From: a virus
IMG/VR virus record: IMGVR_UViG_3300032294_002710
Coordinates: 32,001 to 96,000 of that record
DNA: 64,000 nucleotides
Strand: one strand, 5' to 3'
Position numbers and translations under genes: made by a program
In this document: piece after piece, positions 12,428 to 56,462 of the stretch
Layout: the number at the start of each line of letters is the position of its first letter
Position numbering within the stretch: position 1 is the first letter of the stretch
Notes under the pieces: model-generated
The model's input: the letters and a program-made list of their open reading frames with translations, nothing else
Databases searched by the model: none
What the model was told of the DNA's origin: nothing

Positions 12428-14137
12428 ATGGCATCAACTTATAATCCTCTTGGGCAAAATACAACTCAGTTTAACAGCGCTATTGAAAATCGAGGACTTT
12501 TTAGTAGAATTTTAAGAAACTTATCATCATGGGGTATGAACTATGATGATATGATTATGAGAAACCAAGTCGGTGTTGGTATAAACGAAGATCCTTATAC
12601 TATACAAGGTAACTCAATGTATGACTTCTTTAGTAGAAGAGCTGTTGCCTCTGTTTTAAATAGAAAGTCAATTCCTTATTTAGATAGATCTTATGCTGAT
12701 AAAAGAAGAATTTTAAGAGAATATTCTATAAAGGATGAAATAAGAGATTTCGTATCAACAGTTTGTGATGAATGTGTTATTTACTCTGATAAAGATTTTT
12801 GCAGACCTAAAAACTTATCTAATGACTATACACAAGATGTTACGGATAAATATCAGGAATTCTTTGAGAAAATTTATAATAGATACGGTTTTTCAGATTC
12901 TGTTACCGCTTGGAACTTCATGAAAGATTTCTTGATTGATGGATATTTGGCAATGGAGATAGTTTGGGATGATAAAAAAAAGAATATTATACACTTTAAT
13001 AGATTAAGACCTGAGACTTTGGTTCCAGCTTTTGAACCATCTATAGGTAATATTTGGATTCAGTACCCGGAAGATCCACAATTAAGAAGAATATTTCTTG
13101 ATTCACAAATTATTTTTATTTCTTACTCTACTCAAAATGACTATTCTGAAACTTCATATGTGGAGGGCTTGATAAAACCATATAATCAGTTGAAGATAAT
13201 TGAGCAGACTAAAATTATGTTTAACATAATAAATGCCACTGTTTATCAAAAATTTACTATACCTGTTAAAGGTTTATCTAGACAAAAGGCTGAGGAGCAA
13301 ATAGGTCAATTAATAAATGATTACTCAGAGGAAGTTGAGTGGGATGACTCGTTAGGTACACTTCAAATAAATGGTACTAAACACCTACCATATAATAAAC
13401 AAATTTGGTTTCCAGAGGGTGATGCGGGTACTCCAAATATGGAGTTAGTCTCACCACAAGGACATAACCTAAATGAAGACGATATATTAAAGTGGTTTTA
13501 TAATATTTTAAAAAGAGCTTCAAAAATTCCAGTTCAAAGATTTGAAGGTGATAATGGTGGTGGTAATGTATTTACCGATGCTGCTGAGATGACAAGAGAT
13601 GAGGCTAAGTTTAGTAATTTTATTGGTAGATTAAGAGCGAATTTCAAAGAATTACTTGTTAAACCATTGAAATTGCAAATGTTGGTGGAATTTCCAGAAT
13701 TTAAAGATGATGAGGTTATTTTAAATCAAATTGATGTTGATTTTATTTCAAATCAATTGTTTGAGGAGTGGAAAAAATTAGGAAATATGTCTAAGAAAAT
13801 TGAAATACTTGGTAGTTATACTGGAATTCAGAAGGCTGATGGTACACCTTATTTCCACATAGAATATTTAATAGATCACGTGTTGAAATTATCATCTGAA
13901 GAAAAAGAGGAAAATAAAAGATACTGGGTTAAAGATGCTGCAGGAGCTGGATCTTCAGAGGCAACTCCTGGTGAGGCTGGTGCTGGTGAGGCTGGTGCTG
14001 AATTCGGTGGAGAAGAGGCCGGTGGCGCTCAAGCTACTCCTGAGACCCCTGAAGCTCCCGCTCCTGAGACAGGTGGTGGAGAAGCTGGTGGTGAGGCAGG
14101 TGGTGGAGAAGCTGGTGGTGGAGAATTTGAATTCTAA
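12428..14137 (+). CDS. gp20: Portal protein, gp20-like, with Gly/Glu-rich C-terminal tail
   Basis: FLIDG, KPYNQLKIIE, IWFP and EMTRDEAKFSNFIGRLR; lies upstream of protease and capsid genes. Confidence 0.92.
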   Translation: MASTYNPLGQNTTQFNSAIENRGLFSRILRNLSSWGMNYDDMIMRNQVGVGINEDPYTIQGNSMYDFFSRRAVASVLNRKSIPYLDRSYADKRRILREYSIKDEIRDFVSTVCDECVIYSDKDFCRPKNLSNDYTQDVTDKYQEFFEKIYNRYGFSDSVTAWNFMKDFLIDGYLAMEIVWDDKKKNIIHFNRLRPETLVPAFEPSIGNIWIQYPEDPQLRRIFLDSQIIFISYSTQNDYSETSYVEGLIKPYNQLKIIEQTKIMFNIINATVYQKFTIPVKGLSRQKAEEQIGQLINDYSEEVEWDDSLGTLQINGTKHLPYNKQIWFPEGDAGTPNMELVSPQGHNLNEDDILKWFYNILKRASKIPVQRFEGDNGGGNVFTDAAEMTRDEAKFSNFIGRLRANFKELLVKPLKLQMLVEFPEFKDDEVILNQIDVDFISNQLFEEWKKLGNMSKKIEILGSYTGIQKADGTPYFHIEYLIDHVLKLSSEEKEENKRYWVKDAAGAGSSEATPGEAGAGEAGAEFGGEEAGGAQATPETPEAPAPETGGGEAGGEAGGGEAGGGEFEF

Positions 14138-14577
14138 GCAGCTTCATTATATTCATAATACGCGTAGAATCCAATTATGAATTTTTGTTTTACCTTTACT
14201 CCCATTATTATTGGATTTATTTGTAAATCTATTCCAGAATTAATTAAACTTTTTAATAGTTTACCATTTGGTGTTTCTAATATCTCAATATTGAGTATTA
14301 TCTCATTTACTTCTAAATGACTATCAATAATAAATGATATTTCATTTATTCTAAAGGCCACATTTTTAAGATTAGTTGTTGATGAAAATATTTCAGAAAT
14401 TCCTAATTCGCACAAGAGTGGTGGATTAATTTCAGTTATATCAAACTGACATTTTTTACCTAAAATAGAGTTTATTTTTATTTCTCTGTATATTGATTTA
14501 TAGTCTCTATACTTTTCAAGTAAATATTTAAAACATTCAAGATTATATCTTTCCTTTAGATTAACATTAGTTATCAT
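14134..14577 (-). CDS. Degenerate prohead-protease-like protein, probably inactive
   Basis: LCELGI...NLKNVAF...IEILETPNGKLLKSLINSG aligns by eye with gp21 YGEFDH...SLARASH...IRLLNTHWGKEAQALVNDG. Confidence 0.6.
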   Translation of the reverse strand: MITNVNLKERYNLECFKYLLEKYRDYKSIYREIKINSILGKKCQFDITEINPPLLCELGISEIFSSTTNLKNVAFRINEISFIIDSHLEVNEIILNIEILETPNGKLLKSLINSGIDLQINPIIMGVKVKQKFIIGFYAYYEYNEAA

Positions 14578-14935
14578 TTTGTGACTTTTTCTTTTCAGAA
14601 ATTGTTAGTTTCATTTTCTTGAAAAGTTTTTTATTCTGAATTGGATATTCTACTCCATAGTTTTTCTGAAGTGTCTCTTTTCTTTTCGATTCTGAGCACT
14701 TTCTACAGTAGTAGATGCCCCAGATATTTCCATACTTAATATAATTCTTGTAGATTACATCTTTTTTAATTCCACATCCGTCACATTCACAGAGTATTTT
14801 ATAGTGAGATCCTTTTGATAGCAATTCTGTTGGTATTATTAAATCATCTCCAATAGAAATATCATATCCTAAATTTTCAAAATATGAAAAATTAGACTCA
14901 TTGATTTTGATTTTAATTTCTCTAGTTATGATCAT
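14567..14935 (-). CDS. Zn-ribbon protein resembling the DNA-binding part of phage homing endonucleases
   Basis: CECDGCG and CRKC, plus KETLQKNYGVEYP motif; no nuclease domain seen. Confidence 0.55.
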   Translation of the reverse strand: MIITREIKIKINESNFSYFENLGYDISIGDDLIIPTELLSKGSHYKILCECDGCGIKKDVIYKNYIKYGNIWGIYYCRKCSESKRKETLQKNYGVEYPIQNKKLFKKMKLTISEKKKSQNDN

Positions 14936-15088
14936 AAAAAACCGTTAATTTTTAATGTATATATCTATTTTATCATGTCTCTGTGAGATTTTATAGATTA
15001 AAGTTTTTCTAAATCCTATAAAAAATCCACCTTTAATTTTTTTTGGTTTTTTAATACCCATATATAACTAAAATTAACGTTAAATTTC

Positions 15089-17275
15089 ATGAAATCTATT
15101 CTTATTGTTGAAAATTCAACAAACTCTCTCTCAAAGATTAACGAGAGCAATAATAAGTCCCAAAATATTTTAGGTGGTATTTTCACAGAATTCGATATTA
15201 AAAATCGTAATGAGAGAATTTATACTGCTGATAAATTTCTTCCTTGTTTAGAGGAAATGAATGAAAGGATTACAAACATGGGTTCTGTTTATGGTGAGTT
15301 TGATCATCCAGATGTATTTGATACATCTTTGGCTAGAGCATCACACTTAGTTACAAAAGCGGAATTCGTTAAAGAAAATAATAGAGTCGAAGGTGAAATT
15401 AGATTACTCAACACTCATTGGGGTAAAGAAGCTCAAGCATTGGTTAACGATGGTTGTCCAGTTTTTGTTTCTTCACGCGCTGCTGGTATTACAGAGTCAG
15501 ACGGTACTGTTACATTGAAAAAGTTATTTACTTATGATATTGTGGCTGACCCTGGTTTTGCATCAGCAAAAATGAATGTTAAGACACTTAATGAATCGTT
15601 CGGCTTCTCTAATAAAGCTAACTTTAGGATATATGAAATGTCCGATGAGTCAAAAATAAATGATTTATTTAATATGAACACTAATGATTTAGTTACTAAA
15701 GAACAGTTAACTGATTATTCTAAATATCTTATTAATGAGTTGGCTTCTACTAAGAAAGAAGTTCGTGACGCAATTAAGAAAGGTAATCTTAACCCAAAGA
15801 AATTAGAACAGTTACTTGAGTACTATGAAAACTTAAACGAGACAAATTCTCAAATTGTTAAGTACTTAGACTATTTGGCTGAAAAAGTTCAAGTTGTTGT
15901 TAATGAGAACACAAGTCTTAAAACAACTGCTGAAAAACTTATCAAGCACAATGATTATTTGGCAGAAAACCTTGAAAAGGCAATAAATTACACTGAGTAT
16001 GTTGCTGAAAATCTTGATAAGAATATTGAGTATTCAGAATACTTAGCAGAAAATCTTGACAAGAACATCTCTTACTCAGAATACATCGCTGAAAATCTTG
16101 ATAAGAACATTTCTTATTCTGAATATTTGGCTGAAAATCTTGATAAGAATATAGCTTATTCTGAATATTTGGCTGAAAATCTTGATAAGAACATTGCATA
16201 CGCAGAATACATCGCTGAAAATCTTGATAAGAACATTTCTTATTCAGAATATTTAGCAGAACATCTTGATAATTCTATCGCTTACTCAGAATATTTGGCT
16301 GAGCATGTTGAGGGAAATATCGCATACTCAGAGTACATCGCAGAAAATCTTGATGATAACATTGCATACTCTGAATATATTGCAGAAAACCTTGATAAGT
16401 CAATCTCTTATCAAAGTTTGATTGTTGAAAAATTAAATGGTGGTAAGTTATTTGAAAGTAACGAAGAAGAAGATAGATTACCATCTTTAAATGTCGTTGG
16501 TATTGATTCATACGAAGAAGAGGCCGATGATAAATATGAAGAGGAAGAAGAAAATGCATGGAATGATAACTCAGAAGCTCCTTCTGCTGAAGAAACTCCA
16601 GGCGTATCTGAATCTAATGAGGCTGAAGAAACATCTTCTGAAGCTGATGAGGCTGAAGAAACATCTTCTGAAGCTGATGAAATGTCATCTGAATCTGAGG
16701 AAACACCTTCTGAATCTGATGAATATAATGAGTCACCTGCTTATGAAGGTAACTCTGATACTGAATTATCTAAATCTATTGATAAATTGATCGAAGAAGC
16801 TAAAAAACGTAAAGCTATTGAAACATCCGATCTACACTTTTTAAAATTCTTAAACAAATCTCAGGTTGATAGTTACTACTCTTTAACTAATGAAGAGCAG
16901 GAAGCTGTTACACTTTACATAAGCGAAAAAAGTTTCTTTACACAACAAGATGTGTTGAGATTAATCTCTGAGGCTTTGACATCTAAGAATGAAACTCTTG
17001 AAGAAAGAGTAATCAGATTGATGCCTGAAAACATCAAGCCAATCTGGAATCAATTAAATGAGAGTGCTAGAAAATCCATTTTATCTCAAGCTAGATTATA
17101 TCCAGCTGAGGTTATGTCAACTGATTCACAAGTTGAACATTTCTGGATGACTAGAAATCTCAAGAAAAATGAATCTGTTACTAAGAAATTAGTTTCACAT
17201 GAGAGTATGATTCAAGAAGATAAAATATCTGAAAAGGAATTGAATGCAATCATGGAAAGATTTAAAAACCTTTAA
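15089..17275 (+). CDS. gp21: Prohead protease (gp21-like) fused to a scaffold/core region
   Basis: KNRNERIY, GEFDHP, VSSRAAG and YDIVADPG, followed by coiled-coil repeats and an acidic region. Confidence 0.88.
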   Translation: MKSILIVENSTNSLSKINESNNKSQNILGGIFTEFDIKNRNERIYTADKFLPCLEEMNERITNMGSVYGEFDHPDVFDTSLARASHLVTKAEFVKENNRVEGEIRLLNTHWGKEAQALVNDGCPVFVSSRAAGITESDGTVTLKKLFTYDIVADPGFASAKMNVKTLNESFGFSNKANFRIYEMSDESKINDLFNMNTNDLVTKEQLTDYSKYLINELASTKKEVRDAIKKGNLNPKKLEQLLEYYENLNETNSQIVKYLDYLAEKVQVVVNENTSLKTTAEKLIKHNDYLAENLEKAINYTEYVAENLDKNIEYSEYLAENLDKNISYSEYIAENLDKNISYSEYLAENLDKNIAYSEYLAENLDKNIAYAEYIAENLDKNISYSEYLAEHLDNSIAYSEYLAEHVEGNIAYSEYIAENLDDNIAYSEYIAENLDKSISYQSLIVEKLNGGKLFESNEEEDRLPSLNVVGIDSYEEEADDKYEEEEENAWNDNSEAPSAEETPGVSESNEAEETSSEADEAEETSSEADEMSSESEETPSESDEYNESPAYEGNSDTELSKSIDKLIEEAKKRKAIETSDLHFLKFLNKSQVDSYYSLTNEEQEAVTLYISEKSFFTQQDVLRLISEALTSKNETLEERVIRLMPENIKPIWNQLNESARKSILSQARLYPAEVMSTDSQVEHFWMTRNLKKNESVTKKLVSHESMIQEDKISEKELNAIMERFKNL
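15962..16423 (+). repeat. 11 tandem 42-nt (14-aa) coding repeats, consensus AENLDKNISYSEY(L/I)
   Basis: Counted in the translation; DNA unit approximately gctgaaaatcttgataagaacatttcttattcagaatatttg. Confidence 0.95.
16619..16678 (+). repeat. 30-nt tandem duplication (EAEETSSEAD x2)
   Basis: gaggctgaagaaacatcttctgaagctgat occurs twice. Confidence 0.9.
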
Positions 17276-17314
17276 TCTCAGGTAGAAAGAGATAAAAATT
17301 AAAAAGAAAAAATT

Positions 17315-19045
17315 ATGTCACACATTAGAATAGACAAACAAAAAGCAGTCAAGAAGTGGTCTCCAGTTCTTGAAAACATGGGTGTTACTGGTGATAGAGT
17401 AGAATGGATGTCAGAATATGCTGAGTTCCACTCAATTAACGAGAACGCTTATGCTAACACAGCTATCGCTGGTATGGGAGCTGTTTTAAATCCAGTTATT
17501 GGTGCTAACACACCAGCTGGTGCTTTGACTACAGGTCAAGGTTTCGCTGGAGTTGCTGGTTCTGGAGATTTAGGTCAAAACCTTCTTCCAGTAGCTATGA
17601 AAATTGCAGCTCAAACAATAGGTCTTGACCTTGTTGCTGTTAAACCTTCTCCAGGTCCAAAAATCGATTTACTTTATATTGACTTTCAGTACGATGATAC
17701 TGATTTGACTTTTAACGGTAGACCACAAGTTTTCAAAGTTACTGCACTTAACGGTACTGCATGGTCAGCAGCTAACACTGCAACTGTAACAGCAGCTTTA
17801 TCAGCAGCTACTACATTGACTTCAGGTGGTCTTAGAGGTGGTAGATTATTCTGTACTGGCTCAACAACTGCTGGTGCTACTGGTGCTTTCACTACAACTG
17901 TACCAAGTGATAACGCTTCTAAAGCAGGTGTTCTTGAATTCTTAGGTTTCTCTCGTGTAGATGGTTACCCAATGTTCAGAGCATGGAGACAATCAAACTC
18001 TCAATCAACAGGTGGTGTTTTCAACTCATTACATGCTGGTTACCCATACACTTTTGACCAAACTCAAAACACATTTGGACCAACTGGTTCAATCGTTTCT
18101 CAATTGAACTTCATTGGTACAATCGTTGCATCAGCTTCTTCAGTTGATTTAGTATCAGCTCTTGAAGATCACCTTCCAGGTTTCTCAACTAACTGGACTT
18201 CTTCATCTGCTTCAGGTGATTATCCAATGAGTCGTCAAACTGATGATAATACTTATGCTGGTATTATCGGACCAAAAGTTTCTTCTAAAACTGTAGCTGT
18301 AGGTACTATTGAAGTATCAACTGCTCTTAGAAGAACAGAAATTGAAGATATCAAGGCTAACACAGGTATGGATATCGTTCAAAAGATGGAATCTATCCTT
18401 GTTAACGAATTGTCTCAGACAATCTCTAGACAAATTGTTGATAGAATCTTCTCATTAGGTACTGCTAACAGAAACACTTCTCCATTATCTTATGGTTGTG
18501 CTACTATCCAAGCTACTGCTTCTACAATCTTCGACCTTAACACAGTTTACGCTGGTTCAAGTATCGTTGGTGGTGAAACTACTCACGCTGTTCAACGTAA
18601 GTTGATCACTAAGATGGTTCACGCTTCTAACTACATTGCAACTGAAGGTCGTGTTGGTCCAGCTCAATTCGCTGTAACTAACGGAGGTCTTGCAGCAGCT
18701 CTTATGGATATCGCTGGTTATACAATTAACCCAGTTAAATCTAAGATTACTGGTCAAGGTCAATTATACCCAGTTGGTCAAATCGGTGATATTTCTATCT
18801 ATGTTGATCCTTATATGAAGTATAACGACAACAGAATCGTTCTTGGTAGAAAGAATAACCCAGATCAACCAGGTCTTATCTTCATTCCTTACTTGATGGC
18901 TCAGTCTATCAGTGTAATTTCTGAAGCGACTTTCGCACCAAGAATGTTGTTACGTTCAAGATACGCAATTGCAGATGTTGGATTCTTCCCAGAAAAACAA
19001 TATATGACAATTGTTGTTACAGACATTAACCAATTATTGAACTAA
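17315..19045 (+). CDS. gp23: Major capsid protein, gp23-like
   Basis: KKWSPVLE, AQTIGLDLVAVKP, IYVDPY, PGLIFIPY, FAPRMLLRSRYA; strong codon bias. Confidence 0.95.
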   Translation: MSHIRIDKQKAVKKWSPVLENMGVTGDRVEWMSEYAEFHSINENAYANTAIAGMGAVLNPVIGANTPAGALTTGQGFAGVAGSGDLGQNLLPVAMKIAAQTIGLDLVAVKPSPGPKIDLLYIDFQYDDTDLTFNGRPQVFKVTALNGTAWSAANTATVTAALSAATTLTSGGLRGGRLFCTGSTTAGATGAFTTTVPSDNASKAGVLEFLGFSRVDGYPMFRAWRQSNSQSTGGVFNSLHAGYPYTFDQTQNTFGPTGSIVSQLNFIGTIVASASSVDLVSALEDHLPGFSTNWTSSSASGDYPMSRQTDDNTYAGIIGPKVSSKTVAVGTIEVSTALRRTEIEDIKANTGMDIVQKMESILVNELSQTISRQIVDRIFSLGTANRNTSPLSYGCATIQATASTIFDLNTVYAGSSIVGGETTHAVQRKLITKMVHASNYIATEGRVGPAQFAVTNGGLAAALMDIAGYTINPVKSKITGQGQLYPVGQIGDISIYVDPYMKYNDNRIVLGRKNNPDQPGLIFIPYLMAQSISVISEATFAPRMLLRSRYAIADVGFFPEKQYMTIVVTDINQLLN

Positions 19046-19064
19046 TAATTAGTTTCATATTAAC

Positions 19065-19091
19065 AAAAACCCTCCAATTGGAGGGTTTTTT
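19065..19091 (+). terminator. Intrinsic terminator after the major capsid gene
   Basis: aaaaaccctcc-aatt-ggagggtttttt. Confidence 0.9.
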
Positions 19092-19116
19092 GTTTTATAT
19101 AAGTAATATATAACAT

Positions 19117-19512
19117 ATGATAAATAAATACGAGAAGTTTTTAGAATCTAAAAAAGATAAATTTCCTAATATCCAGACAAAAAAATTAGATGATTTTAGT
19201 ATTTTAATAGGTAAAGATGCTGTATCAAATGATTTTTTGACAACTAATATGGCGAATGATGATGACTTGTGGTTTCATGCAGCTGGTGTTCCGGGAAGTC
19301 ATATTGTTATAAAGGTAAGTGATAAGTTACCTATGGAAAAACATATTGAAGAAGTCGCAAAGTTGGCGGCTAAAAACTCGAAAGCACCAAAAGGTGTTAA
19401 AGTTAAGGTAGTCTATTGTAAAGCTAAGTTTGTTAAGAAAAATTCAGATATGAAACCTGGTCAAGTTAGTGTAGATTATAAAAACGCTCAAGAAATAGTT
19501 GTAGAAAATTAA
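19117..19512 (+). CDS. Stand-alone NFACT RNA-binding domain protein (DUF814, RqcH/FbpA C-terminal-like)
   Basis: IGKDAVSNDFLT, DLWFHAAGVPGSHIVIK, LAAKNSK, KPGQV. Confidence 0.88.
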   Translation: MINKYEKFLESKKDKFPNIQTKKLDDFSILIGKDAVSNDFLTTNMANDDDLWFHAAGVPGSHIVIKVSDKLPMEKHIEEVAKLAAKNSKAPKGVKVKVVYCKAKFVKKNSDMKPGQVSVDYKNAQEIVVEN

Positions 19513-19537
19513 TATATAACAAAACGAATTAAATTAT

Positions 19538-20896
19538 ATGGCAGATCCAATTATCTGGTTTAGTGATAAATTACATGATATAATAGATGATATAAATGGT
19601 CCAGTTGCTGAAGCAATGCTTAAGATGTTAGATGGAAACTATTTAACAAAAAATGAATTAAAAATTAAAAAAGTAGATGTTTCTGTTACCGATTGGAATT
19701 TTGATGTTACTGTTGGTAGTGATGGCCAAGTTCCTGTAAAGCAGCGAATGAAAGTTGGTAAGTTTATAAGACATTTCTTTGGTAGTACATTTACCGATAA
19801 ACAGATTTATGACTTTACAATGGCTTATAATAATTTGAAGAAGGGAATTCCTGCTTCTACTCAAACGGCTAAAGTTAGCTATAAAAAGGTAGAAGTTCCA
19901 GAATTTTCATATAATCCAAAAGATGTTAGATCTACATTTTTATCTCTAACAACTAAGACATATCCACACGGACATGAAGAAGAAGTTTTAAAGTTCTTAC
20001 CAAGCCTTGAAAAGGATCAGTTTGGAAATTATTATAAAATAATTGGCAAATCAGAAACAATGTTTACATCACACTTAGATACAGCTGATAGACAACAAAA
20101 AAATGTTAATGTCTATAGTACAATATTAGCAGATGGTGATGAAATGTTCGTTACTGATAATAAATCTATATTGGGTGCAGATGATAAATCAGGTGTATCT
20201 GTTATGTTGTATATGATGGCTCATAATATTCCAGGTGTTTACTACTTCTTTATTGGAGAAGAGAGAGGAGGAATAGGTTCGCATCAGGTTGCTGGTGTTT
20301 TTGAAACAGTTGAACATTTAAAAGGCATGAAGAGATGTGTATCTTTTGATAGAAGAAATTATTTTTCAATAATAACACATCAATTAGGTAGACAATGTTG
20401 TTCAGATCAGTTTGCTCAAGCTTTAGCAAACGAATTGAATAAAGGTGGATTATCCATCGCTTTAGATCCAACAGGTGTTTATACTGACTCCGCTTCTTTT
20501 ATAGATGAGATACCAGAGTGTACGAATATCTCAGTTGGATATTTTTCAGAACATACTGATAGAGAAAGTCAAAACATTTCATATTTAGAAAGATTAGCAA
20601 AATCTTGTCTAAATGTTAAATGGGAAGAACTTCCAACTGTTAAAAAAGTTGGATTTGATGAGGAAATAATGAGAAAGTATAAGCCATTTATTTCAGATTT
20701 TAAATCAACTATATTTAATCTTGAAACAAAGATGGTTAGTGAGTATGGAAGAGCATTTATTAAAATTGATGTTGATGATCCAGATCCTGCTATTGTTTTT
20801 CAAGATTTAAAATCAGTAGAATCATTATTATCTAAGCATAAAATGGATCCAGATATTCAATTTGATGATAATTATATAAAAATAGAACTAAAATAA
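19538..20896 (+). CDS. M20/M28-type zinc peptidase with an N-terminal domain shared with the SC(M/Q)/GRALLW paralog family
   Basis: SHLDT, LGADDKSG, GEERG, SFDRR, TDSA, NISVGY..EHT. Confidence 0.8.
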   Translation: MADPIIWFSDKLHDIIDDINGPVAEAMLKMLDGNYLTKNELKIKKVDVSVTDWNFDVTVGSDGQVPVKQRMKVGKFIRHFFGSTFTDKQIYDFTMAYNNLKKGIPASTQTAKVSYKKVEVPEFSYNPKDVRSTFLSLTTKTYPHGHEEEVLKFLPSLEKDQFGNYYKIIGKSETMFTSHLDTADRQQKNVNVYSTILADGDEMFVTDNKSILGADDKSGVSVMLYMMAHNIPGVYYFFIGEERGGIGSHQVAGVFETVEHLKGMKRCVSFDRRNYFSIITHQLGRQCCSDQFAQALANELNKGGLSIALDPTGVYTDSASFIDEIPECTNISVGYFSEHTDRESQNISYLERLAKSCLNVKWEELPTVKKVGFDEEIMRKYKPFISDFKSTIFNLETKMVSEYGRAFIKIDVDDPDPAIVFQDLKSVESLLSKHKMDPDIQFDDNYIKIELK

Positions 20897-21363
20897 TGAT
20901 AAAGAATGTTAAATTACAAAATATAATTCTTGAAACAAACAGAACTTTTCAAGACGGATATGAAGACGACTATGAGGATGACTATTTTGATCAGTATGGT
21001 AAAGAAGACTTTATTGATGATGATGAGATATCTGAAGAGGAAGAAGAGGATAATCTTGGTTATCTTATAAGAACATTTTTAAGTGCTAGAGGAATTCGTT
21101 CCTATGTTGAAACTGATGGTAAGGATGTTATTATATATGTTTATTTAAATAAAAAAGAGAAAATAAAAAATCTAACTAAAATTTTTGACGTTGTAGTTAA
21201 TAATATGAAGGTACAAATGTTTGAAGATTATGATTTAGAAACTGAGTTGTATGAAACAAAAGAAGGTGAGCATATATTCTCTTTTACTTTCTATGCTGAT
21301 GGAAGTATAGATAAAGATGATTATTCGGATCAAGAAGATTTTACTTCAAGGATACCTTTTTAA
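20896..21363 (+). CDS. Acidic hypothetical protein
   Basis: 155-aa ORF overlapping the upstream stop codon. Confidence 0.6.
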   Translation: MIKNVKLQNIILETNRTFQDGYEDDYEDDYFDQYGKEDFIDDDEISEEEEEDNLGYLIRTFLSARGIRSYVETDGKDVIIYVYLNKKEKIKNLTKIFDVVVNNMKVQMFEDYDLETELYETKEGEHIFSFTFYADGSIDKDDYSDQEDFTSRIPF

Positions 21364-23697: not shown

Positions 23698-24447
23698 ATG
23701 GACTTTCAAGGATATTTTAATACCGTTTTTAAAAATGTAAAATTTGAAGGATTAGAAAATTTTAATCTATCATCATTTGATCTTTATGAAAAAAGTTCAA
23801 TACAAATTTCTTTACCACCATCTGTGTCTGAGAATGAGGAGTTTTATTTAAACTCTCTATTTGAGACTATTAGAAATCAGATCTCATTAGATGCTCAAAA
23901 AAGGATTTTAGAATCTATTCATAAAAATCCATCAATGTATTTTATTGATATTATGAATTCGCAAGAGAAGTCTAAAAGTAATTTACTTACAGACTATGAT
24001 ACACATGTGTCTTTAGTTAGAGGAATAACATCTCAAATATTGAGACTTAATATTAAAAATATAGTTTCTAATGGTAAGATTCTATCTGAGTATATTGTAG
24101 ATTCTCCGGCTTTTTCACAAGAACCATTAAGTAATAAATTATCAACATCTAATACATTTACTAAGTATGGTAAATTAATTAATATTAATGTCTATATGGA
24201 TTCATTTATGAAATGGAATGATGATTTTATACTTTCTTATGATGATATCTATTATCATATAAAAGATCTGAGTCTTGATATTATTAGTGATTCAAGATTT
24301 GCTCCTCTTTTAAAGGTTAGTTTTAATTTTGCATTTAGAGTAGATAATCCGGGTAAAATATGGGTAATTGATAGTATTAGTTCTGGCGGTTATGTTCATT
24401 ATAAGTCAACTTTAAGAGATAAAAAGATTGATAGTCTATTGGATTAG
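23698..24447 (+). CDS. Truncated, divergent paralog of the major capsid protein
   Basis: Colinear matches to the C-terminal half of the capsid protein, e.g. INVYMDSFMKWNDD vs ISIYVDPYMKYNDN and ISDSRFAP vs ISEATFAP. Confidence 0.7.
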   Translation: MDFQGYFNTVFKNVKFEGLENFNLSSFDLYEKSSIQISLPPSVSENEEFYLNSLFETIRNQISLDAQKRILESIHKNPSMYFIDIMNSQEKSKSNLLTDYDTHVSLVRGITSQILRLNIKNIVSNGKILSEYIVDSPAFSQEPLSNKLSTSNTFTKYGKLININVYMDSFMKWNDDFILSYDDIYYHIKDLSLDIISDSRFAPLLKVSFNFAFRVDNPGKIWVIDSISSGGYVHYKSTLRDKKIDSLLD

Positions 24448-26588: not shown

Positions 26589-27047
26589 ATGAACGCTCAT
26601 AAAAAATTACGAGAACTTGGTTTTAAAAAGACCAATTTTTATAAGCCAGGTTATGACCCTGAGACTTATGAATCTTGTATGCTTTTAGATGAGTATGATA
26701 CTAAATGGGAAACAGTTAATGGTAAAAGAGTTTCAGTAAAAGTTAATAAGATACATCCTAAATCAGATTCATTTTGGGTTTTAAAGTATAATGAAAATTA
26801 TATACTTTGGTGTTATGTGAAGTCACATCAAATAGACAAAATATGGGTAGAGAATAAATTAGGAAAGAGTCGAAGTAAAAGTAGGTTGTTATATTATGGT
26901 GTTGGTTCGGGTGATGATAGGTTAAAAATGGTTTTTGATTATAATAACAGGGAATCAAATCCATTACAAGGTAAAAATCAAATTATGAATTTACTACCTA
27001 AAGAAGTAAAAAGAGATTTCTTACTTGAACAACTTTTTGGATTTTAA
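26589..27047 (+). CDS. Hypothetical protein
   Basis: 152-aa ORF directly after TATATTTG (26576-26583). Confidence 0.6.
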   Translation: MNAHKKLRELGFKKTNFYKPGYDPETYESCMLLDEYDTKWETVNGKRVSVKVNKIHPKSDSFWVLKYNENYILWCYVKSHQIDKIWVENKLGKSRSKSRLLYYGVGSGDDRLKMVFDYNNRESNPLQGKNQIMNLLPKEVKRDFLLEQLFGF

Positions 27048-39874: not shown

Positions 39875-40320
39875 TAACAACTTACATTTGTAAAAAAGGT
39901 GATATTGGTGTGCATGACAATATGTTTGGTGGTACATTAATGTCACTAATTGATGATGCTGCGGCTTCTTATGCGGCTCAAATATGTGATACACCAAGAA
40001 TTGTTACTATTAAAATTGATGAATTAGTTTTTAAAAGACCAGTTAAGGTCGGTAGTTTAATTAAAATCTATGGAAAGGTTGTAGAGTTTGGTAGAACTTC
40101 TGTTTCTTTATATATCGAGGTTAGGAAACATAATGTTTATACTGGAGAACAAGAAGTTGTGACACATACAAATATAAAATTTGTTCGCATAGACGAAGAA
40201 GGAAATTCTATTCCTATTTCTGAAAGAGTTAAGGTTAGATATTCTGATAGAGTTAAACAATTTGGTAAAGGACTTATTTCAAATGAAGAAAAAAATTGTT
40301 TAAATGAAATCACAAATTAA
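39865..40320 (+). CDS. Acyl-CoA thioesterase (hotdog fold)
   Basis: NMFGGTLMSLIDDAA, FKRPVKVG, GRTSV, FVRID. Confidence 0.88.
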   Translation: MELITTYICKKGDIGVHDNMFGGTLMSLIDDAAASYAAQICDTPRIVTIKIDELVFKRPVKVGSLIKIYGKVVEFGRTSVSLYIEVRKHNVYTGEQEVVTHTNIKFVRIDEEGNSIPISERVKVRYSDRVKQFGKGLISNEEKNCLNEITN

Positions 40321-40510
40321 TAAAAAAAATGTTCAAAATATTGGTGAACATTATGGATTAGATATTGAGGCAGAATTAACATCAATGCTATCTGATGAAT
40401 TGGCTAAATCAATAGATGCTGAAATTATGAAGAATCTATTTGGTAGTGATAAGAAGAAGGATAAAATTAATAGAATATTAGAAAAAATTAAAAAATTTGA
40501 AAATGATTAA
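40304..40510 (+). CDS. Mini-protein resembling the capsid spine helix
   Basis: HYGLDIEAELTSMLSDELAKSIDAEI resembles capsid NTGMDIVQKMESILVNELSQTISRQI and the T4 gp23 HGMDADAEL..IL..EI motif. Confidence 0.6.
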   Translation: MKSQINKKNVQNIGEHYGLDIEAELTSMLSDELAKSIDAEIMKNLFGSDKKKDKINRILEKIKKFEND

Positions 40511-42512: not shown

Positions 42513-44054
42513 GTGTTAGTAGATACTCAATATTTAATAAATCATAGAAAACTAGTTGTTAGTTATGTTGATAAGTCAGGTGATATTAAGTTAAAATATT
42601 TTGATTGGCAAACTCCTCTTAAATATGTAACTTGTGAGGATAACGATCCCCAGAGACATCCAGATTATAAATCTTGGGATGGAAAGCATGTTAAGCAGAT
42701 AGAGGTAAATCATCCAGATCGATATGCAGTTTATGAATTTCTTGATGCTCTTCCAGAAAAAGAGAAAGAGGAAATTTTTGAATTTAATCTTCCTAAGATA
42801 TTTTTTATAGATATCGAGACTGAGATAATTGATGGATTTCCAGAGGCTGCTGATATAAAAGATGCCGCTGGAAATGTTATTAAAGAAGGTGCCTCTACAC
42901 AAGTTTTATCTATATCTATTGTTTATGACGATAAAATAATTCTTTTGGGGTTGAAAGATATGCCTCAAGATATGCAGGATCGTATAATAAACAATAGTAA
43001 TAAATATTTTGAAAAGTCAAAAGTTGAATACAAATTCAAATATGTTAGATATGAAAGTGAATTTGATATGATGTATGACTTTTTTCATAAGATGGTTCCA
43101 AAAATGCCACTTATAACCGGTTGGAACTTCTTAAACTATGACTGGTTATACTTAGTAAATAGATCTAGAAAGATATCAAAATGGGTAAATGGAAAAGAGA
43201 TAAAAATAGACCCAGCCGTTTCATCTCCAACTAAAAGATTAAATAAAGTTTGGTCAACTGATTATGAAGTTCCAGCTCATAGAATGATATTCGACTACAT
43301 GCAACTGTATGAAATTTGTGACACATCTATTAAGGTTAAAGAAAGCTCATCATTGGATTTTGTTTCAAATAAGTTAGTTGGTGTGGATAAAATTAAATAT
43401 TCCGGCTCTCTCCAAAAACTTTATGAAGACGACTTTGAAACTTTTATGTATTATAACGCTGTTGACTCCGTTTTGGTGCAAAAGATACATGAAGCCAGAA
43501 ATTATATTTCTATTATTTTCGCTATTTCTGCCCTTGCTAGAATTCGTGTTGTAGATATTGTGTCTCAGATGAATAATGCTCTTGGTTCACTTGCTATCAC
43601 TGAAGGTGTGCTCAGAAATAGATTCCGAGATATGGAAAACATTATCTTATTTAAAGACGAAAATGCTGTTCGTGGTGGTGAATCAGGAATTGCTGGTGGT
43701 TGGGTAAAAGATCCAGTTGTTGGTATGAATAAGTGGTGTGTTATTTATGACTTTGCCTCACTTTATCCTACAACTCAACTTCAGTTCTTTATCGCACCAG
43801 AAACATTTGTTGGTGTTAAAACTGAACAAGAAGCTGACTACTGTTTCAATGGTAATCAGAGAATTAAAATTGATTTAGATAAACACGTTGTCTGTGTAAA
43901 TGGTGTTGTCTTCGAGAAGAGATATTCACCAACACTGAAGATGTTGGATGATGTCTACGCTGACCGTAAAAAGAATAAGAAAATCATGATGGCTAAAAAA
44001 GAAGAGTATAAAGCTGTTATGGATGAAATAAAAAAATTAGAAGCCGAATTATAA
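42513..44054 (+). CDS. gp43: Family B DNA polymerase, N-terminal part (exonuclease plus motif A) of a split gene
   Basis: ExoI DIETE, ExoII GWNFLNYD, ExoIII YNAVD and motif A YDFASLYP; ends before KxxxNSxYG and YGDTDS. Confidence 0.88.
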   Translation: MLVDTQYLINHRKLVVSYVDKSGDIKLKYFDWQTPLKYVTCEDNDPQRHPDYKSWDGKHVKQIEVNHPDRYAVYEFLDALPEKEKEEIFEFNLPKIFFIDIETEIIDGFPEAADIKDAAGNVIKEGASTQVLSISIVYDDKIILLGLKDMPQDMQDRIINNSNKYFEKSKVEYKFKYVRYESEFDMMYDFFHKMVPKMPLITGWNFLNYDWLYLVNRSRKISKWVNGKEIKIDPAVSSPTKRLNKVWSTDYEVPAHRMIFDYMQLYEICDTSIKVKESSSLDFVSNKLVGVDKIKYSGSLQKLYEDDFETFMYYNAVDSVLVQKIHEARNYISIIFAISALARIRVVDIVSQMNNALGSLAITEGVLRNRFRDMENIILFKDENAVRGGESGIAGGWVKDPVVGMNKWCVIYDFASLYPTTQLQFFIAPETFVGVKTEQEADYCFNGNQRIKIDLDKHVVCVNGVVFEKRYSPTLKMLDDVYADRKKNKKIMMAKKEEYKAVMDEIKKLEAEL

Positions 44055-48289: not shown

Positions 48290-48299
48290 TATATAACTA

Positions 48300-51448: not shown

Positions 51449-51508
51449 GAAAAAAGTAGCAAACAATAAAATATATTTTCACTATAAAATCAAAATATAT
51501 TAAACTGT

Positions 51509-52837
51509 ATGACCTCGTCATTAGAAAAAGTTTTTTTTAACTACATATTAAAGAATAAGAAGTATTTTGAAATTATAAGACCGTATTTTTTTAGGAATTC
51601 TGAAATTCAATTTGTATTCGGTATAATCCGTGAATACATGACTAAAAATTCAGATGCTCAAATACCAACACCGAGACAAATTCTCGATATGGTTACTCTC
51701 GAAGATAAAGAAGGAATAATAACAAAAGAAATTTTAAAGTCTCTATTAACAGATAATCTAAAAGATTATGATGAAAAGAATTTCATTGAACCTAAGTTTA
51801 ACGCCTGGATTCTATCAAATAGAATTAAAGCAGGTACTGTAGATATTATCGATGAAACAAGAAATTTTGATAATATATCTGATTTTGAATCTGCTATAGA
51901 AAGAGCAAATAAAATAAGAGCAATCGTTGATGAGATGTCATCAACAAATTTTGTTGATGATGATGATTTAGGATCTGATTTTGATGAACCTGAACTTCAC
52001 GTACAAGATAGTTCAAGGTTTAAAGTTAAGTCCGGGTTCGAAACTATTGATCATATTTTAGGTGGTGGATGGGATATTGGTACACTAAATTGTGTAATGG
52101 CTGAGACTAATAATGGTAAATCACTATGGATGCAAAACTTTGCAGTAAAAACTGCTGATGCTGGTGCTAATGTCTTATACATCACTCTTGAAATGAGTGA
52201 GAGAAAAGTTCTTAAAAGATTGGGTTCAATGCGTTTAAGAATTCCAATTAATGATTATGATACAGTCAGTAAAGATACTGAATTAATAAGAAAAAAGATT
52301 AAGTCTCTCGGTTCGATGAAAGAAGGTGGTGATTTATTTTCTAATAAAGTTGGTAAAATTTATACAAAGTTCTGGGCCGCTGGAACTGCTACTATAAATG
52401 AATTTGATAATTATGTTCAAAAAATTAATCAAAAAAAGGGAATTAAATTTGACATGATTATTGTTGATTATATCACACTTGTTGCACCGGTTAAAGGTGC
52501 TGGTGATAATCTCTATACAAAAGGTAAACACTTGGCTGAGGGTCTAAGAGCTTTAGGTGCTAAATATAAATGTCCAATTATTACGGGAGTACAGGTGGCA
52601 AAGGATGCATGGAATGCATCTGATATAACTTTAGAAAGTGTGCCAGAATCTAAAGCAATTGCTGAAACTGCGGACACTTTTTTTGCTATAATAAGAACTG
52701 AGGAAATGAAACGATTAAATCTCTACAGATTTAAGTTATTAAAGCAAAGAGATGGAGACTTTCTAAAGAGTCAAATAAAACTGACTCTCAACCCTACATA
52801 CTTGACATTGGAAAATGATCAATTTGTAGATTCTTAA
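51509..52837 (+). CDS. gp41: Replicative DnaB-like helicase (gp41)
   Basis: AETNNGKS, YITLEMSE, IIVDYI, AEGLRALG, ESKAIAETAD, KQRDG. Confidence 0.9.
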   Translation: MTSSLEKVFFNYILKNKKYFEIIRPYFFRNSEIQFVFGIIREYMTKNSDAQIPTPRQILDMVTLEDKEGIITKEILKSLLTDNLKDYDEKNFIEPKFNAWILSNRIKAGTVDIIDETRNFDNISDFESAIERANKIRAIVDEMSSTNFVDDDDLGSDFDEPELHVQDSSRFKVKSGFETIDHILGGGWDIGTLNCVMAETNNGKSLWMQNFAVKTADAGANVLYITLEMSERKVLKRLGSMRLRIPINDYDTVSKDTELIRKKIKSLGSMKEGGDLFSNKVGKIYTKFWAAGTATINEFDNYVQKINQKKGIKFDMIIVDYITLVAPVKGAGDNLYTKGKHLAEGLRALGAKYKCPIITGVQVAKDAWNASDITLESVPESKAIAETADTFFAIIRTEEMKRLNLYRFKLLKQRDGDFLKSQIKLTLNPTYLTLENDQFVDS

Positions 52838-52852
52838 AAAATAATTATAAAG

Positions 52853-53788
52853 ATGCCAAAGAAGAAAAAATATGAAGAAGAAGAAGATTTTGAAAACTTT
52901 GATGAGTTGGAAAATGAATCTAGCTTTGATGAAGTTGTAGATGATGATAAGTCTGATGATCTTGATAGCTCAGAAGTAGAGGACATTTTAGGTGATGATG
53001 ACGGTGACTTAGATATAGTAATTGAGATATCTGAAGATCCTATTGATGAAGAAGCACCTAAAGATGAAGATGTTGTTTTATCAAAGCACAAGGTACAAGG
53101 CAAGCACTCCTTAAAGTATGACTCTATTTTTAAGGGTAAAAAAGAGGAAAAGCCAGATGAAGATGGTGGAGATCAAACAGCTATGTATTTCAATGAAAAA
53201 TTTGAAGTAGATAAGTCATCATTTTTCTATGTTGAGTCTTATGATAACGAGTATTATATTAGACAAAAAAATGTTAAAGAGAAGGTTTATAATGTTCTTC
53301 TTCAACATACTAATATAAATTTTCTTAATAATAGAAGAAAACCATCAAAATCGGATTTTAATCACTACTATTATTTACTCAAGGCGAATTTAGACCAAGA
53401 TGGTTTTACTAATATTGAATTATTTAATGAATTATCTGTTTATTTTTCTGATAACCTATTCAACATGTTTAAGCTATTGGATAATAAGTGGAGAAATTTA
53501 ATAATTATTGAATTACAAGATCACATAGGCAAAAATACAAATGCTAAAGATATAACTAATAGAAATATTTATGTTGGTACCGAGTTAGAGTTTTTACAAT
53601 TAGACGCACTTGGAAACCAGAAGACATTTACTGGCGTTGTACTTGAAGCATACTATTCCGAATCTGTTTTTAAAATAGATTCTTATGAGAATGTGTATGA
53701 AGTTCATATATCTTCAATAACAAGAATATTAAATAATTCAAAATTTAAGTATAATTTAAATAAATTAAATAATATTGATTTTTTATAA
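52853..53788 (+). CDS. Hypothetical protein with highly acidic N-terminus
   Basis: 311-aa ORF. Confidence 0.6.
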   Translation: MPKKKKYEEEEDFENFDELENESSFDEVVDDDKSDDLDSSEVEDILGDDDGDLDIVIEISEDPIDEEAPKDEDVVLSKHKVQGKHSLKYDSIFKGKKEEKPDEDGGDQTAMYFNEKFEVDKSSFFYVESYDNEYYIRQKNVKEKVYNVLLQHTNINFLNNRRKPSKSDFNHYYYLLKANLDQDGFTNIELFNELSVYFSDNLFNMFKLLDNKWRNLIIIELQDHIGKNTNAKDITNRNIYVGTELEFLQLDALGNQKTFTGVVLEAYYSESVFKIDSYENVYEVHISSITRILNNSKFKYNLNKLNNIDFL

Positions 53789-53862
53789 TTTTCCAAAAAA
53801 GGTATTTTAATATGAAAAGTCATAACAATATATAAATTTCTAAAAAATAAAAACATACTAAT

Positions 53863-56181
53863 ATGCAAGAAATGATATCGAAAGATGTTAAAAGATCCAC
53901 TCGTAGCAATGAGTTGAGTGTCAAGAAGAGAAATGGTCAAACTGAAGTTTTTGAAGCTGAAAAAATTAATAAAGTATTAATTTGGGCAACATCAGGAATA
54001 AGTGGTGTTTCCGCATCTGATGTGGCGATGAATTCACATCTACAATTCTATCCAGGAATAAAGACATCTGAAATACACAAAGTCTTGATTCAATCAGCAG
54101 TTGATTTGATTTCAGACAAAAATCCAAACTATCAATATGTTGCTTCAAATCTATTGAATTACTTACTTCGTAAAGAAGTTTTTGAAACAAAGAAGGAACT
54201 ACCTTCTCTATTTGAATGTATTAATAGAAATATTAAAGTGGATTTATATGACTCTTTGATACTTGATAAGTACACTCAAGAAGAAATTGCTAAGTGTGAT
54301 TCGTATATCAAACATGAAAGAGATTATGATTTGACATATGCTGGTCTTCAACAATTGATTGATAAATATCTTGTTAAAGATAGAAGCACCGGTAAATCTT
54401 ATGAGACTCCACAGTTTTGTTTTATGATGATTGCTATGACTGTTTTTGCAGATTATGATAAATCTACAAGAATGGATTTTGTAAAAGAATTATATGATAT
54501 GATTTCTGAACATAAGATTTCTTTACCAACACCAATTATGGCTGGTATTAGAACACCAAATCGTCAGTTTTCAAGTTGTACACTAATCGAAGTTGGTGAT
54601 TCATTAGATTCTATATTTCATGGTAATGTTGCAATTGGTCAGTATGTTGCTAAAAGAGCTGGTATTGGAATTAATGCTGGTCAAATTAGAGCACTTGGCT
54701 CAAAGGTTCGTAATGGTGAAGTAGTACACACTGGGGTTATTCCATTTTTTAAGATGTTTCAATCAACTTTACACTCTTGTTCCCAAGGTGGTATTCGCAA
54801 AGGGTCGGCAACTCTTTATTTTCCTTGGTGGCATAAAGAAATCGAGGATGTTCTTGTATTGAAAAACAATAAAGGCACTGACGATAATCGTGTAAGACAC
54901 ATGGACTATGGAATTCAATTTGAGAAAACTTTTTACAGTCGATTTATTTCAAATGGTGATATTGCACTTTTTTCACCTTCTGATGTTCCTGGACTTTATG
55001 ATGTATTTGGTCTCCCAGAATTTGAAGAGCTATATTTAAAATATGAGGCAGATAAAAAAATCCCTAAGACGATTATTAAAGCGAGAGATTTAATGAACTC
55101 TTTTGCACAAGAAAGAATCGGAACTGGTCGTATGTATGTTATGAACATAGATAACGCTAATACTAATTCACCTTTTATTGAAAGATTGAAAATGTCTAAC
55201 TTGTGTGTTGAAATTGTTTTACCAACAGCACCAGTTGAAAATATCTATGATATCGATAATAAGAAAGAAACCGAACAATACTCAGATGCTGAGATTGCAC
55301 TCTGTACATTAGCTGCCTTTAACTTGGGTAATATTAAATCCTGGGCAGAACTTCATAGAGTTGCTGAGTATATTGTTAGAATTCTTGAATATGTAATCGA
55401 GAATCAAGATTATCCAATTAATGCGGCTAAGAAAATGTTAAAGCGTCGATCAGTTGGAGTCGGTGTAACAAACTTTGCATATTGGTTAGCGAAACAAGGA
55501 GTTAAATATTCTGATAAAGAAGCACTTTTCTATGTTGATGAGTTGTTTGAAAACATTCAGTATTCGTTATTGAAAGCTTCAAATAAATTGGCACAAGAAC
55601 TTGGAAAATGTGAGTGGTATGATAAGACTACATATTCTCAAGGTGTTTTACCAATTGATCGTTATAATAAAAATGTTGATGAGTTAGTTAAGAGAGATTA
55701 CTCTTGTGATTGGGACACATTAAGAAAGGACATTGAAGAATTTGGTTTAAGAAATTCTGTATTAACAGCTATTATGCCAGCAGAATCTTCAGCAGTTGTT
55801 CAAAATGCTACTAATGGAATTGAACCAATTCGTTCACTTGTTATCACTAAGAAGTCTAAATCTGGACTTGTTAAACAAGTAGCACCTGAATGTATTAAGT
55901 TGAAGAATAAGTATGAGATGGCATTTGAAATGCCGGATAATCGTGGATATACTAATATCTGTGCTATTATTCAAAAGTGGATCGATCAATCTATATCAGC
56001 TAATCATTACTATCAATATTCATCAGATGGTATTTCAATCGGTGGTGTTATTAAAGATGTGTTATACGCTTATAAGTACGGATTGAAAACATTGTATTAC
56101 GCTAATACAGATGATAAAAAGACAGACGATCTTTCTCAAATGGGTATGGATGGTTGTGAATCAGGAGCTTGTTCGATATGA
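53863..56181 (+). CDS. nrdA: Ribonucleotide reductase class Ia, alpha subunit (with ATP cone)
   Basis: VKKRNG, PTPIMAG, QFSSC, SQGGIRKG, SNLCVEI, C-terminal CESGACSI. Confidence 0.97.
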   Translation: MQEMISKDVKRSTRSNELSVKKRNGQTEVFEAEKINKVLIWATSGISGVSASDVAMNSHLQFYPGIKTSEIHKVLIQSAVDLISDKNPNYQYVASNLLNYLLRKEVFETKKELPSLFECINRNIKVDLYDSLILDKYTQEEIAKCDSYIKHERDYDLTYAGLQQLIDKYLVKDRSTGKSYETPQFCFMMIAMTVFADYDKSTRMDFVKELYDMISEHKISLPTPIMAGIRTPNRQFSSCTLIEVGDSLDSIFHGNVAIGQYVAKRAGIGINAGQIRALGSKVRNGEVVHTGVIPFFKMFQSTLHSCSQGGIRKGSATLYFPWWHKEIEDVLVLKNNKGTDDNRVRHMDYGIQFEKTFYSRFISNGDIALFSPSDVPGLYDVFGLPEFEELYLKYEADKKIPKTIIKARDLMNSFAQERIGTGRMYVMNIDNANTNSPFIERLKMSNLCVEIVLPTAPVENIYDIDNKKETEQYSDAEIALCTLAAFNLGNIKSWAELHRVAEYIVRILEYVIENQDYPINAAKKMLKRRSVGVGVTNFAYWLAKQGVKYSDKEALFYVDELFENIQYSLLKASNKLAQELGKCEWYDKTTYSQGVLPIDRYNKNVDELVKRDYSCDWDTLRKDIEEFGLRNSVLTAIMPAESSAVVQNATNGIEPIRSLVITKKSKSGLVKQVAPECIKLKNKYEMAFEMPDNRGYTNICAIIQKWIDQSISANHYYQYSSDGISIGGVIKDVLYAYKYGLKTLYYANTDDKKTDDLSQMGMDGCESGACSI

Positions 56182-56462
56182 TAAACTGGATTAAAAACTT
56201 ATTTAAAAGGAAAGAGGAACCAATTGATCCTCTTTCTCCAAACAATTGGTCAGTTAGTAGAACTAATGGTAGAGTTATTTATAAAATACCAGTTGGTGAC
56301 CTGAATCCGAAATATGCTCAAAAAACATTAAAAGAATTAATGAATAAATATAACGCCCAGATGCCGATTTCAACCAATTACTGGTTTCCAAGTCCTGATA
56401 TGACTAAAGCTGAAAAGATTGAAAGAATTTTGAATAAAATTCAACCTAAAGAGGAAAATTAA
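56178..56462 (+). CDS. Mini-protein resembling an internal segment of the portal protein
   Basis: RVIYKIPVGDLNPKYAQKTLKELMNKY...YWFP resembles portal QKFTIPVKGLSRQKAEEQIGQLINDY...IWFP; ATG at 56178 overlaps the nrdA stop. Confidence 0.6.
   Translation: MINWIKNLFKRKEEPIDPLSPNNWSVSRTNGRVIYKIPVGDLNPKYAQKTLKELMNKYNAQMPISTNYWFPSPDMTKAEKIERILNKIQPKEEN

Follow-up and report, generated by a model that had tools for sequence, protein, structure and literature searches.

A 64,000-base stretch of phage DNA (the window; bases 32001-96000 of the 134,852-base virus record IMGVR_UViG_3300032294_002710; G+C content, ~29%; CheckV completeness, 24%) carries small genes whose products match parts of the head proteins encoded in the same window. 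Judged by sequence comparison, these mini-genes are real, conserved protein-coding genes that were copied and trimmed from the phage's own head genes, and the two mini-protein families compared in this respect (P0003 and P0004, below) are under purifying selection (dN/dS, the ratio of nonsynonymous to synonymous substitution rates, 0.12-0.70).

Three proteomes were compared: those of the whole record (G000; 191 open reading frames [ORFs]), of LR756502.1 (a complete metagenomic phage genome of 642,428 bases; 1056 ORFs), and of a 249-kb relative (326 ORFs; CheckV, 90% complete; capsid protein, 69% identical). The portal, protease-scaffold, and capsid proteins of the window were 77%, 72%, and 67% identical to their LR756502.1 counterparts, and we infer that the source is a megaphage of the Mahaphage clade, to which complete genomes of 634, 636, 642, and 735 kb with predicted Bacteroidetes hosts were assigned by Al-Shayeb et al. 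(PMC7162821). The predicted head genes are T4-like (portal, prohead protease plus scaffold, major capsid protein) and lie as follows.

12428..14137 (+): portal protein, 569 amino acids (aa), parent of the portal-derived mini-protein (Pfam Portal_T4, 192 bits)
15089..17275 (+): prohead protease fused to a repeat-rich scaffold, 728 aa, possible parent of ORF P0001 and of part of a 65-aa mini-protein outside the window (Pfam Peptidase_S77, 22.9 bits, under the cut-off of 27)
17315..19045 (+): major capsid protein, 576 aa, parent of the capsid-derived proteins (Pfam Gp23, 87 bits)

The portal aligned with T4 gp20 (E value, 1.3e-21), its residues 273-335 being equivalent to the clip domain. Relatives of the major capsid protein were found in 256 stretches of viral contigs; the capsid alignment has long runs of invariant columns at residues 338-374 and 511-551, and a PDB sequence search with the window's own capsid protein returned no match.

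Small relatives of the capsid and portal proteins

Three ORFs of the window, together with the helix at the C-terminus of each (the tail), carry the finding.

23698..24447 (+): P0002, compact HK97-fold capsid paralogue, 249 aa, with a C-terminal tail helix (hhalign, AlphaFold2 [AF2], VIA-align)
24385..24441 (+): tail helix of P0002, residues 230-248 (a helix in the AF2 model)
40304..40510 (+): P0003, mini-protein of 68 aa, capsid spine-helix segment plus tail (Pfam, family profiles, hidden Markov model [HMM] scan)
40304..40444 (+): capsid-like segment of P0003, residues 1-47, aligning to capsid residues 332-380
40454..40507 (+): tail helix of P0003, strict motif from residue 51, conserved across the family alignment
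56178..56462 (+): P0004, mini-protein of 94 aa, a tail preceded by a segment of the portal clip; its ATG shares bases with the stop codon of nrdA, and nrdB comes next
56247..56393 (+): portal clip-like segment of P0004 (Portal_T4 profile positions 198-239; own portal residues 273-300), its YWFP resembling the portal's WFP
56406..56459 (+): tail helix of P0004, strict motif, conserved across the family alignment

Profile-profile comparison (hhalign) of the P0002 family with the capsid family gave a probability of 99.6% and an E value of 1.7e-23, covering capsid residues 347-552 only, and a Pfam search with P0002 gave no match. The AF2 model, built from 40 of the 114 family representatives, reached a predicted local distance difference test score (pLDDT) of 87.4 and a predicted template modelling score of 0.82. 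A Foldseek search with it gave 159 HK97-fold matches of capsid or encapsulin type at E values of ≤0.001, with T4 gp23 and gp24 at ~1e-7 to 1e-5; VIA-align placed it at Z 12.1 to gp23 (194 residues; root mean square deviation, 3.9) and Z 11.3 to gp24, and the BFVD matches include vertex proteins of ~300 aa. On this model, P0002 is a complete small HK97-fold capsid paralogue and no fragment. The earlier note on this DNA had called it a degenerate copy of the capsid C-terminal half; the kinship stands, whereas "half" and "degenerate" do not, since the whole fold is predicted.

The P0002 family comprises 114 clusters at 50% identity, most of the listed members being about 220-280 aa long and a few shorter. 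Because the aligned range ends at residues 221-233 against the listed phage capsid and encapsulin chains, helix 230-248 is an add-on relative to these; several herpesvirus capsid chains reach residue 249. Within the tail, R240 is invariant and I244 nearly so (40 aligned members). The gene is preceded by NADAR and Dam methylase genes; 4.7 kb separate it from the capsid gene upstream, and LR756502.1 shows the same gene order. The family HMM (here and below, E value of ≤0.01) found the capsid protein in all three proteomes, with P0003 in the record and three small ORFs in LR756502.1 as weak extras.

At 68 aa, P0003 cannot hold a complete HK97 fold. Its residues 11-48 matched Pfam Gp23 (E value, 3.2e-5; 24.0 bits, below the cut-off of 24.4) over 38 of the 376 profile positions, and its family profile (29 of 113 clusters) aligned with a 31-capsid profile at capsid residues 332-380 (E value, 3.9e-5; probability, 70%). 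The family HMM recovered, in 3/3 proteomes, its own members and the major capsid protein and nothing else. These results bear out the earlier identification of this ORF as a capsid spine-helix segment. Against PDB sequence profiles, the family gave nothing significant (T4 gp23 and gp24 at E values of ~0.85). Pairwise dN/dS was 0.12-0.29 (5 genes). The gene is flanked by those for a 4HBT thioesterase and thymidylate synthase (ThyA), and the capsid mini-gene adjoins the thioesterase gene or thyA in 5/5 close loci.

P0004 scored 24.1 bits against Pfam Portal_T4, over the cut-off of 22.9, and covers positions 198-239 of the 433 in the profile, that is, a clip fragment without the full wing, stem, clip, and crown architecture. 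Compared with the window's own portal by hhalign, it gave an E value of 1.2e-6 (probability, 91%). The decisive link to the portal comes from L011, a viral contig of 190 kb that encodes a more distant homologue of 107 aa, which joins the same N-terminus as that of the P0004 family to a 60% identical match with the phage's own portal (residues 273-335; E value, 8e-25); relative to this form, P0004 of the window has lost an internal loop. The proposal that ORF 56178 is a portal segment was thus upheld. By Smith-Waterman alignment, its z against the portal was only 4.1, gp20 was not matched by the family in a search of PDB sequence profiles, and the family HMM found the portal in two proteomes and, in LR756502.1, two small ORFs instead. 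Pairwise dN/dS was 0.18-0.70 (6 genes, two of them identical). The gene stands directly 3' of nrdA in 5/5 close loci, with nrdB next in four, the fifth locus stopping before nrdB. In three relatives (L008, L009, and L010), nrdA is split by an insert of ~1.1-1.2 kb, and extra DNA lies between nrdA and the portal mini-gene.

Homologues of P0003 and P0004 form 113 and 104 clusters (90% identity), respectively, of similar lengths, some of them on contigs longer than 600 kb. The metabolic and DNA-modification operon context described earlier was found for all three genes (thioesterase-ThyA, NrdA-NrdB, and after NADAR plus Dam methylase).

When 118 small ORFs from the entire record were compared, without bias, with the portal, protease-scaffold, and capsid proteins by Smith-Waterman alignment, the three highest scores all fell to capsid-derived ORFs: P0002 (z, 12.4), an ORF outside the window (z, 8.5), and P0003 (z, 7.9).

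102625-102822 of the record (window-equivalent 70625-70822): 65-aa mini-protein (P0224 family) with the same tail, z of 8.5 to the capsid protein

The 65-aa family matched capsid residues 510-553, in the C-terminal strands (E value, 3.1e-6), and protease residues 138-167, at the end of the protease domain (E value, 5.6e-7; probability, 92%), and its HMM found both the capsid and the protease-scaffold protein in 3/3 proteomes. It looks like a mosaic, or may carry a motif common to capsid and protease; its 35 clusters (90% identity) are of similar lengths. Cross-controls were negative (portal mini-protein versus capsid, E value of 0.15; capsid mini-protein versus portal, E value of 0.46).

LR756502.1 has eight head-derived small ORFs, seven matching the capsid protein and one the portal clip. 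Six of the capsid-like ORFs came from a BLAST comparison of 841 small with 156 large ORFs and the spine-helix mini-gene from a separate query; by region, the seven comprise three from the N-terminal region and one each from the spine helix, residues 421-451, and the C-terminal strands, plus the compact paralogue. Two of the head-derived ORFs lie 1.5 kb apart. Synteny is kept in close relatives, and in distant ones the mini-genes occupy other loci. Profile searches of the 249-kb relative returned the parent proteins only, with neither mini-genes nor compact paralogue; since this genome has the same head genes, the mini-genes are accessory.

Tail helix, N-terminal motif, and other ORFs

The tail in its strict form, K..KI.[RK]I[LI].[KR][IL], occurred 3 times in the 191 ORFs of the record versus 0.005 in shuffles (P0003, P0004, and the 65-aa ORF), and P0002 and a 78-aa ORF end in the form RD.KI..[IL]L. 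The loose form in which the earlier note had described a shared motif occurred 7 times versus 2.5 ± 1.5 expected and is not significant alone; what remains of that claim is the strict form and the C-terminal position in P0002, P0003, and P0004. In the record, a tail is carried by 4/4 fragments and by 9/127 of the remaining small ORFs (P = 6e-5; the pattern was selected post hoc).

In LR756502.1, the pattern [RK][DN].K[IL][DENKST].[IL][ILM] was found 50 times versus 0.8 expected, with 42 copies (1056 ORFs) no more than 25 residues from the C-terminus versus 0.08 expected. The proteins that carry it are mostly about 55-240 aa long (one is 622 aa), many are arrayed near the genome ends, and a Pfam scan of 10 of the tail proteins left 8 without a family. 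The 249-kb relative has only 3 C-terminal tails in its 326 ORFs. The tail, a short amphipathic helix, is a general feature of this clade's small proteins and no label of head fragments; the idea of the motif as the tag of a set of head decoys falls with its membership of this pervasive C-terminal class. At the conserved positions the codons vary synonymously (AGA and CGT for Arg; six Leu codons), so the constraint acts on the protein, and a DNA-level signal was rejected. Derivation of the tail from the capsid protein's own C-terminus was also rejected, the likeness seen in the record not being kept in LR756502.1.

A second motif, M[KR].[LIVF]K.[FYW], often MKHLKKFE, stands at the N-terminus of 14 of the 191 ORFs of the record and 73 of the 1056 of LR756502.1 (0.07 and 0.5, respectively, in shuffles). 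Examples are the window ORFs at 12027, 21858 (-), and 46519 (-), and one LR756502.1 capsid N-terminal fragment also has it. We take this motif to resemble the T4 capsid targeting sequence. Relative to the literature searched, the head-fragment mini-genes and the two pervasive terminal motifs (C-terminal RDxKIxxIL and N-terminal MKHLKxF) are new, and both motifs point to candidate hub interactions that would organise a large fraction of the uncharacterised small proteins encoded by huge phages. Separately, a 481-aa ORF of the record (105921-107366) has a UVR-like motif at its end, and small ORFs with UVR-like motifs occur in LR756502.1.

Three further ORFs had been proposed as members of the set.

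14134..14577 (-): P0001, 147 aa, tail-like helix near the N-terminus and a weakly protease-like segment (homologues, hhalign)
14458..14517 (-): internal tail-helix copy, P0001 residues 21-40 (hhalign to the P0002 tail; tail HMM)
14218..14379 (-): weakly protease-like stretch, P0001 residues 67-120, aligning to protease residues 78-127 (PHROG 207)
26589..27047 (+): P0005, 152-aa ORF, a variant tail at most (C-terminal resemblance by eye alone)
57566..57916 (+): P0006, 116-aa ORF, not supported as a member (coiled-coil-type likeness to the scaffold repeats)

P0001 had been read as a copy of the protease; what was found is a weak likeness (PHROG 207, E value of 0.035; BLASTP, E value of 1.5; family hhalign, E value of 7.5e-4 but probability of 25%), to be read beside controls with E values of 0.6 (reversed protease alignment) and 0.042 (lowest value among 40 column shuffles); the alignment is too weak for the catalytic His and Ser to be placed. 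Residues 21-40 of its family aligned with the P0002 family tail at 230-249 (hhalign E value, 1.2e-4; probability, 55%), and the tail HMM scored this internal helix at 12.3 bits versus 11.4 for the best shuffle. Homologues are present in 19 of 24 related virus records, in LR756502.1 (in the same place after the portal), and also in the 249-kb relative. Beside P0001, between portal and protease, a 122-aa ORF (14567-14935, -) is similar to the N-terminal part of a homing endonuclease (PHROG 12131; E value, 3.2e-7), and the same pair occurs in LR756502.1. P0005 matched no Pfam or PHROGs family. P0006 was dropped as a scaffold fragment and is not supported as a member of the set, its similarity to the scaffold being weak and of coiled-coil type (E value, 0.054 in a 447-ORF search; z, 3.2).

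Elsewhere in the window, a family B DNA polymerase ORF (42513-44054) contains the exonuclease domain but only the beginning of the polymerase domain, and may be part of a split gene; the phage also encodes a Ro60/TROVE-vWA protein (59994-61442) and a protein with an NFACT-R domain (19117-19512).

Possible functions of the mini-proteins

Our best explanation, which we put forward tentatively, is that the mini-proteins mimic interfaces and thereby influence head assembly and DNA packaging. Each would present one conserved head-protein contact element in isolation and for that reason could act in trans on the assembly and packaging machinery: the clip mini-protein by binding the large terminase (8997-11207 of the record) or neck proteins, the capsid mini-proteins by binding capsid or scaffold partners, and all with the tail helix as a shared handle for docking or oligomerisation. 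The T4 portal clip (gp20 residues 279-358) is exposed outside the capsid and is the attachment site of the terminase gp17 and the neck protein gp13 (PMC4493910). A 24-residue T4 clip peptide (residues 288-311) binds gp17 and inhibits DNA packaging, and by this analogy the suggestion of dominant-negative regulators made in the earlier note fits, the retained portal piece being the clip (PMC4493910). Because the mini-genes are accessory, they may plausibly help to adapt assembly to a very large head. If the mini-proteins do act on assembly or packaging, they would be natural interface mimics made of capsid, portal, and protease segments and would offer a way to study how megaphages build and fill their very large heads.

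Several points weigh against this explanation. The mini-genes sit in nucleotide-metabolism and DNA-modification operons outside the head module, and any binding partner, expression time, or virion location of their products is putative. The comparison with a smaller relative is a comparison with one genome, possibly short of 10% of its sequence. The tail is not confined to head fragments (42 small proteins in LR756502.1), where the link between fragment and tail is weak (strict form, 1/8 versus 48/833, P = 0.38; looser form, 3/8 versus 89/833, P = 0.047). The AF2 model of P0004 alone was poor (pLDDT, 63). Timing is unreadable from the sequence because AATATATA, a possible promoter or leader element at many intergenic sites (e.g., 11999, 12397, 19105, and 53827), stands correctly oriented 10-35 bases before the starts of many genes of all kinds, head genes, nrdA, and metabolic genes alike. 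No enrichment was seen for the T4 late-promoter word TATAAATA (16 versus 17.2). A complex prediction of the capsid family with the P0003 family scored 0.00, which weighs neither for nor against binding.

Functionless remnants of decaying duplications, or chance similarity between K/I/L-rich proteins, would account for the shortness of individual matches and for the PDB profile searches, which were not significant for the capsid mini-protein and gave no gp20 match for the portal one. We give this reading scarcely any credence; it is already contradicted by the more than 100 length-conserved clusters in each of two families, by dN/dS values well below 1, by the negative cross-controls, and by a motif far over its shuffles, and the similarity reported in the earlier note for P0002, P0003, and P0004 is accordingly real and neither chance nor debris. 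A place in the virion has more to recommend it, with P0002 as a gp24-like vertex (penton) protein, the mini-proteins as cement or decoration subunits, and the tail helix bringing all of them to the capsid. The Z scores of the P0002 model, the ~300-aa vertex proteins in BFVD, the position of the gene 3' of the capsid gene in both genomes, and the tail as an addition to the HK97 core of phage capsid chains all agree with it. The 249-kb relative, with its 69% identical capsid protein, lacks paralogue and mini-genes in profile searches, so neither is needed for this head type; the mini-genes lie in metabolic operons, and the clade already has the T4-like N-terminal targeting-type motif (14/191 and 73/1056 ORFs). 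We therefore regard minor virion parts as rather unlikely.

The other idea of the earlier note, anti-defence decoys, supposes that the fragments mimic conserved capsid and portal parts and so occupy or disarm host sensors, the tail blocking or disposing of the bound sensor. It is likewise a rather unlikely reading. Retained pieces fall within the long invariant capsid runs (338-374 and 511-551), which is partly detection bias. In the sources searched, several Avs families wrap the HK97-fold capsid while Lit and CapRel read short motifs, and a full-fold paralogue plus fragments would match both; the genes lie outside the head module, and a 546-aa ORF of LR756502.1 (441027-442667) is ClpA/B/C-like AAA+ by a reading of its N-terminal sequence. 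However, by carrying the recognised motif, a fragment should set off a motif-sensing system and not silence it, and the literature searched, including a 2026 review, yielded no published capsid- or portal-fragment decoy. If true, the decoys would be a new class of counter-defence. A wider form of the idea, which we consider decidedly unlikely, is a modular system of Mahaphage-clade megaphages in which dozens of small proteins share a C-terminal handle and those derived from head proteins would be mimics that pre-occupy capsid and portal sensors or pass targets to a phage Clp-type unfoldase; this would amount to a protein-level counter-defence toolkit to which the phage's structural genes supplied the parts. 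It seems very improbable that the mini-proteins are weapons against related phages in a co-infection, with conserved interface pieces disrupting a competitor's assembly or packaging but being tolerated by the proteins of the phage itself. The P0003 segment does score equally on the general Pfam Gp23 profile and on its own capsid protein, and the clip peptide inhibits T4 packaging (PMC4493910), but the portal mini-protein family is nearest its own lineage (60% identity to the phage's own portal for the L011 form, 43-57% to LR-series metagenomic huge-phage records, and 25.5% to cyanophage portals).

Comparison with known systems

No description of head-fragment genes was found in the literature searched, the supplements of which could still hold huge-phage gene lists; related designs are nonetheless on record. 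T4 gp24 is the vertex paralogue of gp23, and P0002 is likewise a capsid-related second protein with the HK97 fold, its gene lying downstream of the capsid gene. It differs in having only 249 aa, in matching capsid residues 347-552 only, in its extra C-terminal helix, in following NADAR and DNA methylase genes, and in having no counterpart in the smaller relative with the same capsid type. Paralogy and predicted fold are thus those of a gp24-type vertex protein and a penton role is putative, an essential one being argued against by the absence of the paralogue from the 249-kb relative.

Short terminal peptides direct proteins into shells in several systems, namely the capsid targeting sequence of T4 internal proteins, the cargo-loading peptides of encapsulins, and the C-terminal signal of the HK97 protease. 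The tail is like these in being short, terminal, and common to many otherwise unrelated small proteins, and incorporation into the head is putative on that likeness; it differs in that this clade already has a separate T4-like N-terminal motif. The laboratory clip peptide of T4 gp20 (residues 288-311) has its equivalent strand-helix part in P0004 as a free small protein. P0004 differs in being a natural conserved gene with an internal loop deleted and N-terminal and tail helices added; the T4 peptide binds terminase, and terminase binding by P0004 is putative.

MicroProteins of plants and animals are small single-interface relatives that regulate larger proteins by competition. The mini-proteins are similarly small, conserved, and derived from larger proteins of which one contact element is kept; here, however, there are several parents and a shared tail, and none had been described for phage head proteins in the literature searched. 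Satellite capsid remodellers (P4 Sid, SaPI CpmB, and PLE TcaP) are small trans-acting proteins that alter the assembly of HK97-fold capsids, and the Foldseek list of P0002 names P4 Sid, as well as a satellite scaffold of Vibrio cholerae, in entry titles only. The analogy would lie in small proteins acting in trans on HK97-fold capsids, as proposed here; the remodellers are satellite-borne, are not capsid fragments, and shrink heads, whereas the mini-proteins are pieces of the phage's own capsid and portal.

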